A stretch of DNA of 39,758 nucleotides from Shigella phage SfIV. Positions 26,860 through 37,354 of the stretch are shown here, one piece after another. The translations under genes and the position numbers were made by a program. The stretch lies in the sequence record KC814930, one strand, 5' to 3'. Numbering within the stretch: the first letter of the stretch is position 1; the number at the start of each line of letters is the position of its first letter. Below the pieces are notes generated by a model. That model was not told the origin of the DNA. It did not search any database and was given only the letters and a program-made list of their open reading frames with translations.

Positions 26860-27222
26860 TTAACGACCTGCTGCGCGGAGTTTTCCGTCAGGTTCACCGG
26901 CAAGAGTCAGTAACTGTCCCTGGTCTTCCTGCAGAATAGTCAGGCGACCACCGCGATTGACATACATCGGCGTTTCGGTGGTGTCTTCTTCGGAAATTTT
27001 CCCGCGGTTAGTCGGGCGAACATATGAGAGTTTGTGTTTGATTTTCACACGGTTCTCATCAAATGGTTCGATTTCCAGGTTGAGTGAGACCTTACCTTTG
27101 GTTTTCGTGTTCATCACACCGGAAGCGACTTCACTGAGAACTGCGCCGATTTTGGTTTCAAATACGCCGCCGTCCAGCTCCCCGATAAATGCCTGCACAT
27201 CAGTACTGCGTTCGCTAGCCAT
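26860..27222 (-). CDS. hypothetical early protein (YfdP-like)
   Basis: ORF 26860..27540; ATG at 27222 has SD gaggag upstream and gives a 120-aa protein; the upstream extension lies in GC-rich, structured, probably non-coding sequence. Confidence 0.5.
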   Translation of the reverse strand: MASERSTDVQAFIGELDGGVFETKIGAVLSEVASGVMNTKTKGKVSLNLEIEPFDENRVKIKHKLSYVRPTNRGKISEEDTTETPMYVNRGGRLTILQEDQGQLLTLAGEPDGKLRAAGR

Positions 27223-27690
27223 TTTGCTGCTCCTCATCATATCGACCCTGCAAGGCCGATTAGTTTCTCCACAAAACAGAGAAGAACACCTGCGGTGGCA
27301 GCCGCCCGGATGGATTGGGTTATGAGCCCGTCGTCCGGTGATGCTCTTCTCTGTTTTGTAAAAAGGACGGTACCAGCCGGAAGCAAGGGTACAAACTGGT
27401 ACCTCCAGGACTACACACAGCATAAAGTTGTGGTGCCGGGTGCCTCCCGGTGCCTGGCGAAGGTTGCACACCAGACGGGTGGGTATCCACAGAAGGTCGA
27501 CTGTCAGCCTCAACCTTAACCCGCGTGCGCTGAGCCGCATTCACCACAACGCTAAGGATTCTCTCTGGTTAAAAATACTTAGCTGTTATGTGCCTGCTTT
27601 TAGCCACATCAGGCGAGGTGGACCTGGTTATTTCCCAACAACAAGGATTCGGTTAATCTGGTTATCCCCAACAACGCAAAAGGAAAAGAA

Positions 27691-28125
27691 ATGTCCGGTA
27701 ATATCTACACGCTGTACAAATCCCACTGTGAAAATGTTGGAAAGTATCGGGGCATTGAAATCAGTGGGGTAGTGTCATCAGTCGAAATAAGCAAAGTGGA
27801 ATCAAGGGCAACATTACTTACTCTTCTGGACCTTGTCTTACATGAGCACCGGAAGAAATTCGGCACTCCCTATAATCAGTTGAATGGGAAAAAGGCTCTG
27901 GTTCACCTTATTCTGATGAAGCATCACTGGATGCCAAAACAGATTAATGAGATGAAATTTGATGAACTTCTTCTTTCAATTCAGGATGAACTCACACTTG
28001 ATAAAATAAGCGTAACCGCCCAGAAATTTTTAGATTATCGAGACTGGAGATCACAAATTCATCACTTTGATGATTTTGACGAAAATGAATGGGATCCTAA
28101 TTTGTCTGCACAATATCTAAAGTAA
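27691..28125 (+). CDS. hypothetical protein (AT-rich moron)
   Basis: 144-aa ORF on the opposite strand to the surrounding early-left operon, AT-rich, SD aaggaaaag upstream, two direct repeats in its upstream region. Confidence 0.55.
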   Translation: MSGNIYTLYKSHCENVGKYRGIEISGVVSSVEISKVESRATLLTLLDLVLHEHRKKFGTPYNQLNGKKALVHLILMKHHWMPKQINEMKFDELLLSIQDELTLDKISVTAQKFLDYRDWRSQIHHFDDFDENEWDPNLSAQYLK

Positions 28126-28303
28126 CATCCTGTGATAAAACCGTGATTTCCTGATCCAGTTTTTTTAAGGAGTCTATTGTTTCCTGTCGATAAGACAGCA
28201 CTTCACGAAGCTGGTTTATAGCTGCCAGCTTCTTTGCCATCCACTCGTAAATTTCCTCATTTGTGTATCCGGGCGCGACGATTTTGGGTTCTGTTTTGTG
28301 CAT
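28097..28303 (-). CDS. small protein at the first position of the leftward operon
   Basis: ATG at 28303 with strong SD gaggagg 6 nt upstream; 68 aa, predicted helical; no arginine-rich motif, so not an obvious N homologue. Confidence 0.5.
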   Translation of the reverse strand: MHKTEPKIVAPGYTNEEIYEWMAKKLAAINQLREVLSYRQETIDSLKKLDQEITVLSQDVTLDIVQTN

Positions 28304-28362
28304 TTCACACCTCCTCAAGTTATCAGTTACTTGTTGATGGGGACCAGATTGTTAAAGAGCTA

Positions 28363-28386
28363 AGCGTCCTGTAGGGCGCTTTTTTG
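28363..28386 (+). terminator. rho-independent terminator (plus strand)
   Basis: agcgtcc-tgta-gggcgct stem followed by TTTTTT. Confidence 0.5.
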
Positions 28387-28453
28387 TTGCTAACGAATCA
28401 CCCTAGACTTTATATGCCCCAGGCGGCTACTTCGTGGGCGTCCTGCCTGTTCG

Positions 28454-28483
28454 TTGTTTCTCTTGGGTACATTATGTATCTCG
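28454..28483. promoter_or_regulatory. putative OL-type operator repeats
   Basis: Two copies of tgggtacatt (28454..28463, 28474..28483) sharing the GGTACA core with the palindromes between cI and cro. Confidence 0.4.
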
Positions 28484-28500
28484 TGGGTACATTGTCAAGT

Positions 28501-28525
28501 ATAAAAAAACCTGCCGAAGCAGGTT
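28501..28525 (-). terminator. rho-independent terminator downstream of cI
   Basis: aacctgc-ttcg-gcaggtt followed on the minus strand by TTTTTAT, 13 nt after the cI stop. Confidence 0.6.
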
Positions 28526-28537
28526 CATAAACATTGA

Positions 28538-29212
28538 TTAGGCTTTGATTTTGTATCTTCTTGGTTTTCCTGAGAAAATCACAGTTCCAATTATAGAGCA
28601 ATTACCGTTGATCTTAATGTAAGGCTCAGGCCAGTTTGGGTTTAACGCTTTGAGATAACGCTGTGTCCCATCTTCTATCAACCTTTTGAAGGTGGTTTCA
28701 CCTGTATCGTGCATCAATGCAATAACGTCGTCACCGTGGCAGGCTGGTACTTCAGGATCGACAAAAATCATGTCTCCCGGGCGGTACTCATCAATCATTG
28801 AATCACCTATCACCCGCAAGATATAAGTCATTTCCCCACAGGGTACAGGGCAGGGATACGTTTCTGCTGTGCTCAAATCAACCTCAGAATATCCAACTTC
28901 TTTCCATGCTCCGGCCTGTACCCATGATATGACAGGGACTAATGTGATTTGTTTATTAGTGATTGAAACATCAGGTTTTTTTGTGATGTTCGTTGTCTGG
29001 TGTTCTTGATCGAGCCATCCAACAGGCAGGTCGAAACATTTTTCGATGTGTCGTGCCATGCTGTCACCGATATTTTTAGTAGCACCATCTCCCATAAACC
29101 TGCTGGTCTGGGTTGGCTCGCGATCAATCATAGTGGCAAAGGAAGAATTCCCGCCAACACCATCTCTCAGTTTTCTGGCGTTAGACCGCCGGATGTCATG
29201 GATTGTTTTCAT
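28538..29212 (-). CDS. cI: CI-type repressor (HTH + S24 LexA-like peptidase domain)
   Basis: 224 aa; N-terminal HTH region and C-terminal S24 signature (VIGDSMIDEYRPGDMIFVD ... TFKRL); divergent from a cro-like gene across palindromic operators. Confidence 0.85.
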   Translation of the reverse strand: MKTIHDIRRSNARKLRDGVGGNSSFATMIDREPTQTSRFMGDGATKNIGDSMARHIEKCFDLPVGWLDQEHQTTNITKKPDVSITNKQITLVPVISWVQAGAWKEVGYSEVDLSTAETYPCPVPCGEMTYILRVIGDSMIDEYRPGDMIFVDPEVPACHGDDVIALMHDTGETTFKRLIEDGTQRYLKALNPNWPEPYIKINGNCSIIGTVIFSGKPRRYKIKA

Positions 29213-29227
29213 AACGAAATTAAAACC

Positions 29228-29300
29228 CTTGTACCGTTAAGGTACAAGTATCTTGAAGGTTCATTTTAATCATGTAATATGTACACCGGAGGTACATATT
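29228..29300. promoter_or_regulatory. OR operator region with two palindromic operators
   Basis: cttgtacc-gttaa-ggtacaag (29228..29248) and aatatgtac-accggag-gtacatatt (29276..29300) in the 90-bp cI/cro intergenic region. Confidence 0.7.
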
Positions 29301-29302
29301 GT

Positions 29303-29503
29303 ATGAAAGCGTATTGGGACTCTTTAACCAAAGAACAGCAGGGCGAGTTGGCCGGAAAAGTTGGCTCAACACCTGGCTACTTACGGCTGGTTTTCAATGG
29401 CTATAAAAAAGCCAGTTTTGTGCTGGCTAAAAAACTTGAGCAATGCACGTCAGGTGCAATTACGAAATCTGACTTAAGACCGGATATCTATCCGAAAGAT
29501 TAG
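29303..29503 (+). CDS. cro: Cro-like HTH regulator
   Basis: ATG at 29303 immediately after the second operator; 66 aa; divergent from cI. Confidence 0.7.
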   Translation: MKAYWDSLTKEQQGELAGKVGSTPGYLRLVFNGYKKASFVLAKKLEQCTSGAITKSDLRPDIYPKD

Positions 29504-29534: not shown

Positions 29535-30098
29535 ATGAGGCTAACCGTGGGTAAGCATCACTGGAAAGTAGAAAAACAGCCTGAGTGGTACGTGAAAGCT
29601 GTCAGAAAAACTATCGCAAAGTTGCCGGGTGGTTACGCTGAAGCAGCTGACTGGCTGGATGTAACAGAGAACGCATTATTTAACCGCCTTCGTGCCGATG
29701 GCGATCAGATTTTCCCGCTGGGATGGGCAATGATTTTGCAACGTGCTGGTGGAACTCACTTCATTGCTGACGCTGTGGCGCAGTCTGCAAATGGCGTCTT
29801 TGTGTCTCTTCCTGACGTCGAGGATGTGGACAACGCCGATATTAACCAGCGTCTGCTGGAAGTCATTGAACAGATCGGCAGTTATTCAAAACAGATTCGT
29901 TCAGCAATCGAAGACGGTGTAGTGGAACCGCATGAGAAGACAGCAATTAACGACGAGCTGTACCTCTCAATTTCGAAGCTGCAGGAGCATGCAGCACTGG
30001 TCTACAAAATTTTTTGCATTTCAGAAAGTAATGACGCCCGCGAGTGTGCAGCTCCGGGCGCCGTGGCGTGTCGTGACTGTGGAGAAACTAACGCATGA
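29535..30098 (+). CDS. regulatory protein in the CII position
   Basis: 187-aa ORF following cro; assignment is by position only. Confidence 0.4.
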
Positions 30099-35240: not shown

Positions 35241-35516
35241 GTGGCTTCTGTTTCTATCAGCTGTCCCTCCTGTTCAGCTACTGACGGGGTGGTGCGTAAC
35301 GGCAAAAGCACCGCCGGACATCAGCGCTATCTCTGCTCTCACTGCCGTAAAACATGGCAACTGCAGTTCACTTACACCGCTTCTCAACCCGGTACGCACC
35401 AGAAAATCATTGATATGGCCATGAATGGCGTTGGATGCCGGGCAACAGCCCGCATTATGGGCGTTGGCCTCAACACGATTTTACGTCACTTAAAAAACTC
35501 AGGCCGCAGTCGGTAA
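35241..35516 (+). CDS. insA: IS1 InsA
   Basis: 91 aa, [43 protein letters not shown]... Confidence 0.9.
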
Positions 35517-35938
35517 CCTCGCGCATACAGCCGGGCAGTGACGTCATCGTCTGCGCGGAAATGGACGAACAGTGGGGCTATGTCGGGGCTAAATCGCGCC
35601 AGCGCTGGCTGTTTTACGCGTATGACAGTCTCCGGAAGACGGTTGTTGCGCACGTATTCGGTGAACGCACTATGGCGACGCTGGGGCGTCTTATGAGCCT
35701 GCTGTCACCCTTTGACGTGGTGATATGGATGACGGATGGCTGGCCGCTGTATGAATCCCGCCTGAAGGGAAAGCTGCACGTAATCAGCAAGCGATATACG
35801 CAGCGAATTGAGCGGCATAACCTAAATCTGAGGCAGCACCTGGCACGGCTGGGACGGAAGTCGCTGTCGTTCTCAAAATCGGTGGAGCTGCATGACAAAG
35901 TCATCGGGCATTATCTGAACATAAAACACTATCAATAA
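35435..35938 (+). CDS. insB: IS1 InsB frame (expressed as InsAB' by frameshift)
   Basis: 167-aa ORF overlapping the insA 3' end in the -1 frame. Confidence 0.9.
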
Positions 35939-36283: not shown

Positions 36284-37354
36284 TTAACTTTTACTTCTCC
36301 AGTTTGAACCTTTGAAGTCAGCCATTTGTAAATATAAATCATTTTCATCAATAAGTCCATTGTTATATTGGACGTTTACTTTACCGGATAGTTTTAAATC
36401 ACTGCCTTTAATTATGCCACCACCTTGAAGGTTTATACTAATATCTTCATTGTCTATATTTCTGAGTGAAGTTGCTAAAGTATCGAGTACACGTTGACCA
36501 TCTTTGTTTGTCTTGCGGAAATAGGTTATTTCTAGATTAACTTGTAAATTGGATTCATCAAGAGAATCTTCCAGTTGTAAATTATTAAACCATGCTTCGC
36601 CAAAAGCAGCTTTTATAATATCGCCACCTTTACCAGTTGGCATGAATTTTATTTTCTTAACTTTTTCGACCTGTTCTTTTATTGTTGTGGGGAGGTCGTT
36701 TGTGTTACTTATATTATTTATTTTAACTACATCTTCAGAATCAGAATTTTTGATTGGGATACTGCCGAAATTTATTTTCTTGACTGGACTTTCATGCATT
36801 TTTTTTATGGTGTCTTCAGTTGGTTTATCTTGAAGTACAAGGAAGTCGTCACCATTAAAAATAGTGCTAAATGAATGGATTAACCAATTAAGATGGCTTT
36901 CTATGTCTTTAGTCCTTAGAGCCGGTGATTGGACGATCATCACATGATTATCACGAATCCCAAAGTAAAGTATTGAATCAATAAATTCTCGTGTTATTTT
37001 TTGTTTTTCAGCTTCACTTATTTTTTCGTCTTCGGCTAATTTAATTTGCTTCGATGTTATAGCATTGATGTCATAATAATTGACATCATCAGCGATTGTC
37101 ATAAGTGTTTGGCTTTTACCTTGTTCAAACAAAATAAGTTGCCCGAATAACACTGTCTTGAAAGTGCTGCTGCGGTTAACCACTCTAAATCCACTATTGC
37201 TATCGGAGGGGTTAATCTGTTCTCTTCTTGCGCTAACTTTATAGGCTGCGCCATTTTCAGAAATTATAGATTCTATGATCTGTTGAAGCGTTGCTGTGCA
37301 ATTAGGGATGACTGCACGTTTATATTGAATGACCTTGCTGCGGCTTTCTTTCAT
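36284..37354 (-). CDS. hypothetical 356-aa protein, first gene of AT-rich two-gene module
   Basis: Long ORF with SD aaggaa upstream, very AT-rich, Lys/Asn/Ile-rich, no family or catalytic motif recognised by eye; immediately upstream of the split membrane gene. Confidence 0.6.
   Translation of the reverse strand: MKESRSKVIQYKRAVIPNCTATLQQIIESIISENGAAYKVSARREQINPSDSNSGFRVVNRSSTFKTVLFGQLILFEQGKSQTLMTIADDVNYYDINAITSKQIKLAEDEKISEAEKQKITREFIDSILYFGIRDNHVMIVQSPALRTKDIESHLNWLIHSFSTIFNGDDFLVLQDKPTEDTIKKMHESPVKKINFGSIPIKNSDSEDVVKINNISNTNDLPTTIKEQVEKVKKIKFMPTGKGGDIIKAAFGEAWFNNLQLEDSLDESNLQVNLEITYFRKTNKDGQRVLDTLATSLRNIDNEDISINLQGGGIIKGSDLKLSGKVNVQYNNGLIDENDLYLQMADFKGSNWRSKS

Follow-up and report, generated by a model that had tools for sequence, protein, structure and literature searches.

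A conserved structured RNA in the PL leader of Shigella phage SfIV and its candidate role in early transcription without N

To our knowledge, HK022 is the only lambdoid phage without an N protein for which the means of sustaining processive early transcription is understood, namely its put RNAs. The question is raised again by the immunity region of the Shigella flexneri serotype-converting phage SfIV, whose 39,758-bp sequence was analyzed here as a whole (hereafter, the window). The length, the gene order starting with the small terminase gene, and the gtr/int module all agree with this identity, and the published SfIV genome has the same length and layout; SfIV, SfII, and SfV are stated there to be without CII, cIII, and N (PMC3851460). 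A first-pass annotation of the immunity region, made from the sequence, had likewise reported no N gene and had left the mechanism of early antitermination open. The absence of N stood, while two features of the leftward early (PL) leader had been missed, a structured RNA at 28387-28457 and a boxA at 28348-28360, both on the minus strand. The operators of this region and the absence of N were correctly observed and had been recorded before. What is new is the structured RNA, referred to below as the element, which is widespread and unannotated.

A structured RNA at the 5' end of early-left transcripts

The element comprises 71 nt of the minus strand (28387-28457), where its covariance model scored 84.5 bits (E = 1.7e-24); no second copy was found in the window with this model. 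The outer helix P1 pairs 28450-28455 with 28392-28397, and the hairpin P3 pairs 28419-28423 with 28402-28406 and carries a 12-nt loop of the form GGCRUAYGAANN. A near-invariant core of 23 nt, GGCAGGACGCCCACGAAGUAGCC, occupies 28425-28447, and a UGA stands at 28398-28400. The alignment of six heteroimmune phages revealed an invariant stretch of 26 nt together with compensatory stems, in which both the arms of the hairpin (CCUGG/CUAGG, CCGGU/ACCGG, UCCGG/CCGGA, and CUACC/GGUAG) and those of the outer helix (ACGAA/UUCGU, CCACC/GGUGG, and UCAUC/GAUGG) covaried. When P1 and P3 were evaluated in 33 distinct sequences, 94.8% of the cells were paired and 10 pairs had changed on both sides. The observed values were reached in none of 500 shuffles, and sliding of the partner columns left 19-45% of the cells paired.

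A BLAST search with the PL leader showed that this short block is conserved in phages with quite different repressors and hosts, including ST64B, SEN34, SPN3UB, mEp237, Pectobacterium ZF40, Yersinia YeP1-3, Pantoea AH07, and Klebsiella phages. In every case examined, the block was located 100-170 nt past the repressor gene on the same strand. The exact core was present in more than 120 IMG/VR contigs, among the matches listed, and in 72 stretches from GTDB species-representative genomes; the genera represented were Escherichia, Shigella, Enterobacter, Citrobacter, Kosakonia, Yersinia, Serratia, Pantoea, Erwinia, Pectobacterium, Photorhabdus, and, repeatedly, Xenorhabdus. Two assemblies from outside the Enterobacterales also contained the exact core, L150 (Chryseobacterium sp. 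18061) and L156 (Pseudomonas lundensis), and the L150 copy is joined to a hairpin-boxA module of the E. coli type, a sign of contamination more than of a true host range. A 121-nt query covering the element, the adjoining hairpin, and boxA matched 1517 of 5426 complete E. coli genomes (about 28%), with no annotated feature beneath it among the matches listed. The copy in E. coli K-12 MG1655 belongs to the e14 prophage and lies between ymfK and ymfJ (NC_000913.3, 1,202,107-1,202,178; 72.8 bits). A degenerate remnant (8.6 bits) was also seen in the K-12 Rac prophage, in the racR-ydaG interval at the position of a PL leader (L229, 3013-3053, minus strand). This remnant retains AGGCAG, AAGUAGCC, and the P3 hairpin, and the annotated small RNA KilS is located further downstream, before kilR.

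The position of the element relative to the promoter was examined in 159 distinct upstream sequences. A strong sigma-70 promoter (at least 9/12 consensus matches) was present in 91 of them, and in 66 of those 91 the -10 hexamer ended 12-15 nt before P1; therefore, the element begins about 6-10 nt into the transcript. The upstream open reading frames (ORFs) fell into 34 protein clusters, and six of the seven cluster representatives scanned in Pfam contained helix-turn-helix domains, two of them together with an S24 domain. Directly 3' of P1, 141 distinct sequence variants were found, many of them unrelated modules. Neither a further copy, with up to 5 substitutions allowed, nor any copy on the PR side was detected in 1.87 Mb of related loci, each prophage having one. 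Because the 3' sequence is this variable, the element is self-contained, and it forms a module that heteroimmune phages exchange and that stands at the 5' end of their early-left transcripts. Phages that have an SfIV-type cI and left operators without the element (Ayreon, cdtI, and Stx2c phages) possess a different long non-coding PL leader instead. The first stem of the Ayreon leader (L002, 2440-2995, minus strand; likewise in cdtI and Stx2c), ACGGCGUAUG-GCA-CAUGCGUCGU (ACGGCG...CAUGCGUCG), resembles stem I of HK022 put.

No match to Rfam 15 at the gathering score was obtained in the whole window, and at E values up to 10 the interval 28250-28540 gave terminator-like chance matches only. Since Rfam is without put as well, a missing Rfam match is no proof that the element is undescribed. 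A full-text literature search for the core sequence returned nothing. The element is unannotated in every record examined, and we could not find a description of it in Rfam or in the literature search. The known small RNAs AgvB, AsxR, STnc, and svsR/co293 were rejected as identities of the element, as there was no Rfam match and svsR is placed on the opposite strand at the cI 3' end. The K-turn, the hammerhead, the RfaH ops sequence, and anticodon-loop mimicry were compared by hand, and none of them fits.

Two alternative functions of the element can be considered here. A closing helix around a highly conserved internal region with a variable hairpin, in a size typical of aptamers and small ribozymes, might indicate a ligand- or signal-sensing attenuator of the riboswitch type, or a self-cleaving ribozyme that processes the PL leader. 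This is quite improbable, because the sequences diverge within a few nucleotides 3' of P1, into the 141 variants described above, and so offer no conserved expression platform, and because no riboswitch or ribozyme family appeared even at E values up to 10 and the hammerhead could not be mapped by hand. The element could also act in trans or as a decoy, as an RNA made early to titrate away a host factor, small RNA, or defence system, or as a shared target of superinfection exclusion. Its place as the first RNA after induction or infection, its modular exchange among heteroimmune phages, and the known occurrence of anti-sRNA and small-RNA genes in prophage regions (PMC4104026; PMC12803456) are in keeping with such a role. 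We nevertheless consider it improbable, given that no consistent terminator 3' of the element would free a discrete small RNA from the varying downstream sequence and that neither AgvB, AsxR, nor any other Rfam small RNA was matched.

Early-left transcription in the absence of N

No N family was found in PHROGs among 20 early ORFs, nor in Pfam among the 10 of these that were scanned, and no early-region ORF contained an arginine-rich motif, even at loose thresholds. The tblastn searches with lambda, P22, and phage 21 N (approximate queries) gave no match. In related loci, 136 of 139 distinct regions downstream of the element were also without N. These searches of the early regions bear out the first-pass annotation, which had recognised no N gene.

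The first ORF of the PL transcript encodes an acidic protein of 68 amino acids (aa) (SfIV ORF36; 28097-28303, minus strand; PHROG 1744, unknown function). As had been noted before, its Shine-Dalgarno sequence is strong (GAGGAGG, 6 nt 5' of the ATG) and its product is not N-like; no arginine-rich motif and no Pfam match were found in it. A test of whether early-left transcription needs this protein had also been suggested; such a role for it is unlikely. The 68-aa gene always occurs paired with a convergent 144-aa gene (SfIV ORF35; 27691-28125, plus strand; PHROG 5286, unknown function), which overlaps its 3' end by 29 nt and which PL transcription must cross in antisense. This pair was present in about 21 of roughly 190 related loci and is absent from most phages having the element, and the convergent, 3'-overlapping layout is kept even in pairs that are only 31-42% identical. 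Analogous convergent pairs occupy the same place in SfV (orf33 and an unannotated plus-strand ORF; L001, about 2540-2975) and in e14 (ymfI/ymfJ; L228, 2498-3085). Because the 68-aa protein is part of a two-gene cassette restricted to a minority of the relatives, it is unlikely to be an antiterminator. As a general antiterminator it was rejected on its lack of an arginine-rich motif and of a family annotation, and on its narrow distribution tied to the 144-aa gene. On the basis of sequence and distribution, we read the pair as a probable cargo cassette rather than as transcription machinery; neither the 68-aa protein nor the cassette, considered as an anti-phage defence, gave a match in PADLOC.

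We tentatively propose that the element works in cis, as an RNA that confers processivity or Rho resistance on early-left transcription in a manner analogous to HK022 put and with an unrelated structure. More doubtful is the more specific proposal that, next to put, the element represents a second class of RNA, with an unrelated structure, that works on RNA polymerase in cis as an antiterminator or anti-Rho RNA, independently of proteins, and is far more widespread than put. According to the proposed mechanism, SOS-induced cleavage of CI would allow PL to fire, and the element would be the first RNA to emerge from the polymerase, starting at about +6 to +10. Once folded, the element would then act in cis, like putL in HK022, with the elongation complex or the transcript as its target. 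Transcription could thereby continue across the 68-aa gene, about 0.9 kb of untranslated RNA (including the antisense of the 144-aa gene), and a structured region of 370 nt, up to the yfdP/yfdQ homologues, xis, and int. In SfIV, boxA would add an rrn-type anti-Rho modification by NusB/NusE. N would be dispensable in this scheme, and the 68-aa protein would be cargo, not machinery. Indirect support for this scheme comes from the putL-like position of the element and from the absence of N in the window and in the 136 downstream regions. Stretches without a same-strand ORF are also longer on the early-left side than on the right (median 460 nt vs 195 nt), and in e14 of K-12 late SOS induction is reported for ymfJ as well as for the distal intE (PMC11002266). 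The long non-coding leader that replaces the element in Ayreon, cdtI, and Stx2c phages offers a positional analogy. The structured region on the path of the PL transcript is a GC-rich non-coding stretch of roughly 370 nt (27225-27600, minus strand) upstream of the yfdP-like gene (26860-27222). It folds far better than shuffled sequences (z = -5.09), is common to SfV and Ayreon, and has a sub-threshold match to Rfam STnc100 (best at 27358-27580; 38.4 bits vs a gathering score of 47).

The boxA of the SfIV leader, GCTCTTTAACAAT (28348-28360, minus strand), is identical over 13 nt to the boxA of the E. coli MG1655 rrnH leader, and the 12-mer of the boxA consensus, GCUCUUUAACAA, has its only exact match in the window at 28349-28360 (minus strand). 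It is located about 27 nt past the element and about 105 nt past the PL start, and the start codon of the 68-aa gene follows after about 45 nt. A 5-bp hairpin, CAAGU..ACUUG, appears about 20 nt 3' of boxA in the single-sequence minimum-free-energy fold. On the other side, 3 nt 5' of boxA in the PL transcript, lies a hairpin at 28362-28387 that the terminator scan identified on the plus strand as the intrinsic terminator of the convergent 144-aa gene (AAGCGTCCTGTAGGGCGCTT followed by TTTTTT). Because the stem has a U.G wobble and the T6 run on the plus strand vs a C.A mismatch on the minus strand, with the A6/T6 run conserved, this hairpin is primarily the plus-strand terminator of the 144-aa gene. 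Among the 141 distinct downstream variants, 27 contained boxA-like motifs after the element, which occur without the hairpin in Kluyvera and Xenorhabdus. These motifs were commoner where a convergent gene follows (19/22 vs 63/109), and the e14 leader has no boxA. On the PR side, the first part of cro contains a boxA-like sequence with two mismatches, ACTCTTTAACCA (29319-29330, plus strand); since relatives do not conserve it, it was set aside as probably due to chance.

It is established that boxA recruits NusB/NusE and that it is the key element for rrn anti-Rho activity (PMC12360218). It might be argued, therefore, that boxA alone suffices in SfIV by rrn-like Nus-factor antitermination, with the element as a passenger unrelated to elongation; the 13-nt identity to the rrn boxA and its enrichment where convergent genes follow would agree with this. 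However, boxA is limited to the 27 variants mentioned above, e14 has none and yet its distal intE is SOS-induced, and a passenger would not retain covarying helices and a fixed core across a bacterial order. We regard this explanation as distinctly unlikely.

Several observations weigh against our proposal that the element acts in cis on elongation. The comparison of ORF-free stretches is crude and drawn from loci that are not independent of one another. The prediction that terminators would be enriched in the early-left operons failed, as intrinsic terminators numbered 0.51 per 3.5 kb there vs 0.90 on the right. No second copy of the element past PR was found in the window or in the 1.87 Mb of related loci, whereas HK022 has putR, and the element fails every structural or sequence test for membership in put. 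The hairpin beside boxA is, as stated, better formed on the plus strand, as a terminator. The effect of a boxA can also be the promotion of Rho termination or, near a ribosome-binding site, translational repression, as is summarized for suhB in PMC12360218. In three Xenorhabdus prophages (L174, L168, and L175), a canonical nutL lies downstream of the element together with a gene for an N-like protein that has arginine-rich motifs such as NARKRRHERRKEL and AARRYERRAAFLAKK; therefore, the element is not simply a substitute for N. The nutL of L174 consists of boxA and the boxB GCGCUGAAAAAGCGC, and a true boxA plus boxB was seen only there. The N gene of L174 is displaced by two intervening ORFs, which may be a transposase.

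On the structural side, the folding energy of the element as a single sequence is unremarkable (z = 0.04), and forced-mismatch scans for pairing in the core (GGC with either GCC, or a loop-loop pseudoknot) showed no compensation in 26 natural variants. The strand is not settled by wobble statistics either (20 G.U vs 18 A.C), and the minus-strand assignment is made on promoter context and should be read as provisional. The conserved structure might instead act on the plus strand or as DNA, for example as an insulator or terminator against convergent moron transcription into PL and cI. A weak terminator-like hairpin was flagged in the core at 28434-28450 (plus strand), and convergent genes are common downstream. 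Nonetheless, a hairpin of 3-5 bp with a poor U tract needs no 70 conserved nucleotides, a strong dedicated plus-strand terminator already stands 50 nt before the core hairpin in SfIV, and both the orientation and the distance to a strong minus-strand promoter are fixed. In addition, P3 of the window contains a G.U pair that would become A.C on the plus strand. Taken together, a plus-strand or DNA function is highly improbable.

The near-invariance of 23 nt across the Enterobacterales suggests recognition by a conserved host macromolecule. Such a partner could be a conserved RNA-binding protein of the host (for example CsrA, Hfq, ProQ, a ribosomal protein, or an RNase) that uses the element as a platform and sets the stability, processing, or translation of the early-left transcript without acting on RNA polymerase. 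Its coexistence with N and nut in Xenorhabdus and its extreme 5' position, where 5'-end-dependent decay is controlled, would be compatible with such a platform. The core also contains CAGGACG in the loop of a possible GGC/GCC hairpin, a sequence that we take to resemble CsrA sites. A second GGA, in GGAUGA, is not conserved, being replaced by GGGUGA in the window, GAAUGA in the mEp237 type, and AGAUGA in ZF40, and a two-site CsrA model was rejected on this ground. Moreover, sites for CsrA or Hfq normally need no 23 fixed nucleotides, and we consider the platform unlikely.

We retain, tentatively, the reading of the element as a cis-acting RNA that supports early-left elongation. The element probably reflects an interaction with the host that is conserved and comes into play as soon as a prophage is induced, and together with boxA it may explain how N-less phages keep early transcription going. 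It is a testable candidate for early antitermination in the large SfV/ST64B/Gifsy-like/e14 group, and its presence in e14 of E. coli K-12 makes the question of early antitermination directly testable. If the proposal is true, a class of antiterminator or anti-Rho RNA would extend across Enterobacterales prophages, including those of about 28% of complete E. coli genomes and K-12 e14. Even if the element is not an antiterminator, a covarying RNA of 70 nt whose 23-nt core is fixed from Escherichia to Xenorhabdus is worth curating.

The immunity switch of SfIV

The immunity region of SfIV is 93-97% identical to those of SfV, PhiR29/PhiR49, Ayreon, cdtI, and a set of Stx2c phages, and the E. coli K-12 e14 prophage (ymfK-ymfT) matches it in operators, PL, and the leader element. 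The region is an SfV/e14-type lysis-lysogeny switch, which has already been described, and the GenBank record of SfV already marks a "putative operator region". Two palindromes, CTTGTACC/GGTACAAG at 29228-29248 and ATATGTAC/GTACATAT within 29270-29306, are located in the cI-cro interval, and two direct repeats, TGTTTCTCTTGGGTACATT at 28455-28473 and TGTATCTCGTGGGTACATT at 28475-28493, past the cI terminator. In the first-pass annotation, the palindromes and the repeats had been proposed to share a repressor half-site with a GGTACA core. Both palindromes and both repeats are where they had been placed, the repeats with a length of 19 nt each instead of 10 and a distance of 20 bp. The GGTACA core is real and shared by the sites, and the half-site is better written as TGTACC, within a 17-bp TGTACC-N5-GGTACA.

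The genome scan for further sites, which had been suggested, was carried out over the 39.8 kb. A single 17-bp pattern, TGTACM-N5-GRWACA, fits all four sites and occurs nowhere else (expected 0.01), a statistic that is circular because the pattern was derived post hoc from these very sites. TGTAC-N7-GTACA was exact in the window only at 29230-29246 and 29280-29296, and had one mismatch only at 28475-28491; with two mismatches, it was at chance level (14 vs 10.8 expected). A half-operator-like sequence with two mismatches to it, TTTCCCCACAGGGTACA, was noted in the cI coding sequence (28831-28847, plus strand). GGTACA itself is over-represented in the window (22 vs 12.3 expected), with 7 copies within 28466-29296.

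The footprint of the sites was compared over about 145 distinct PL regions from related prophages. Operator sites were present in all 15 distinct PL regions beside a CI of at least 82% identity and in none of the 128 beside other repressors. Both cI-cro sites were 50 bp apart in 10/10 relatives, where the half-sites are fixed and the spacer of the left site varies freely. Because of this co-occurrence with an SfV-type CI and of fixed half-sites with free spacers, the four sites are read as putative repressor operators of the form TGTACC-N5-GGTACA, which CI is predicted to bind, and the shared half-site is thereby upheld. Each direct repeat would then be the strong half of an imperfect palindrome. 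With this assignment, studies of serotype-converting Shigella phages, Stx2c phages, and e14 have a defined candidate site for CI/YmfK to work with.

The placement of the putative CI sites is that of a switch. On the right, OR-left, TGTACCGTTAAGGTACA (29230-29246), is a perfect 6+6 palindrome and overlaps the presumed start region of PRM, for which the only plausible sequence is ATTACA-N18-GATACT, as read from the sequence. OR-right, TGTACACCGGAGGTACA (29280-29296), 50 bp away from centre to centre, overlaps the -10 and start of PR and the Shine-Dalgarno sequence of cro. The likely PR (TTGAAG-N16-TAATAT; 29253-29280, plus strand) matches the consensus at 8/12 positions and falls under the threshold of the promoter scan, so we infer it by reading the sequence. 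On the left, PL (TTGACA-N16-CATAAT; 28471-28498, minus strand) was found in the promoter scan with an 11/12 match and is identical in e14. OL1, TGTACCCACGAGATACA in minus-strand reading (28475-28491), lies between the -35 and -10 of PL, and in relatives with an 82-88% identical CI it is the better palindrome TGTACC-N5-GGTACA. OL2, TGTACCCAAGAGAAACA in minus-strand reading (28455-28471), covers the PL start site and has a weak second half-site. CI on OR-right would block PR and may activate PRM, CI on OR-left would limit PRM, and CI on OL1 and OL2 would block PL.

The cI gene (28538-29212, minus strand) encodes a LexA-like repressor of 224 aa with a C-terminal S24 peptidase domain (PF00717; E = 1.5e-26, residues 93-212) and an N-terminal part that matches repressor PHROGs (PHROG 4, transcriptional repressor). 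SfIV cI is reported to be 100% identical to SfV cI (PMC3851460), and ymfK of e14 has an equal length in the same immunity region. The intrinsic terminator of cI was found in the terminator scan at 28507-28526 (minus strand; hairpin GAACCTGCTTCGGCAGGTTT followed by a T run). On the strand opposite to the 3' end of cI and its terminator (28457-28536, plus strand), Rfam gave weak small-RNA-like matches (STnc370 and STnc50; E about 2), and a 2026 paper places the prophage small RNA svsR of NC-SV near the position of the cI 3' end and terminator (PMC12803456). The cro-like gene (66 aa; 29303-29503, plus strand) starts at an internal ATG of ORF 29279-29503, with GGAGG 10 nt 5' of this ATG. Its product matches PHROG 35 (transcriptional repressor, 3e-15), and its YdaS/HTH_3 matches are weak and below the Pfam cut-offs. 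A CII-like protein (PF06892) is encoded at 29535-30098 (plus strand), contrary to the statement in PMC3851460 that CII is missing. Late antitermination is conventional, via the Q protein (PF06530; 34571-34948, plus strand). Between Q and the lysis genes lie a transposase-like ORF (35435-35938, plus strand) and a 356-aa ORF (36284-37354, minus strand; PHROG 3482, unknown function), a stretch that corresponds to the low-GC "moron" of the SfIV paper (PMC3851460).

Comparison with known systems

The SfIV switch resembles the lambda-type CI/Cro switch in its divergent cI and cro and in 17-bp, partially palindromic operators over PR, PRM, and PL. With lambda-type phages and e14 it has in common an S24, LexA-like, self-cleaving repressor, the flanking operons being induced in an SOS-dependent manner in e14. 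Unlike lambda, SfIV has two operators per side and not three, its OR sites are 50 bp apart, its half-site is TGTACC, its Cro is of the YdaS/HTH_3 type, and both N and cIII are absent.

The leader is similar to that of rrn operons in its promoter-proximal boxA of 13 nt, identical to rrnH, with a hairpin 3 nt upstream, and the same boxA core is found in lambdoid nut sites such as lambda and P22 nutL. In contrast to nutL and rrn, SfIV has no N, no evident conserved boxB 3' of boxA beyond the predicted 5-bp hairpin, and no identified boxC. The suhB leader provides another likeness, since there too a boxA precedes a protein-coding gene in its 5' leader, in SfIV at about 45 nt from the start codon; the effect of the suhB boxA is to repress translation and to favour termination by Rho (Baniulyte et al. 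2017, as summarized in PMC12360218).

With respect to HK022, membership of the element in put was rejected, since its covariance model finds nothing in the HK022 put regions, there is no common alignment register, and the topologies differ. The element has a closing helix around its core and one hairpin, whereas HK022 put has two side-by-side stem-loops. HK022 putL and putR are cis-acting RNAs that bind the zinc-binding domain of the beta' subunit of RNA polymerase, suppress pausing and termination, and bring about processive antitermination without any protein factor. The element further differs from put in having no PR-side copy and in sometimes coexisting with nutL and N. On the other hand, like putL, it is about 70 nt long and stands at the extreme 5' end of the PL transcript of an N-less lambdoid phage, and like put it is modular and self-contained and carries a short GGAUGA motif (GGGUGA in the window).

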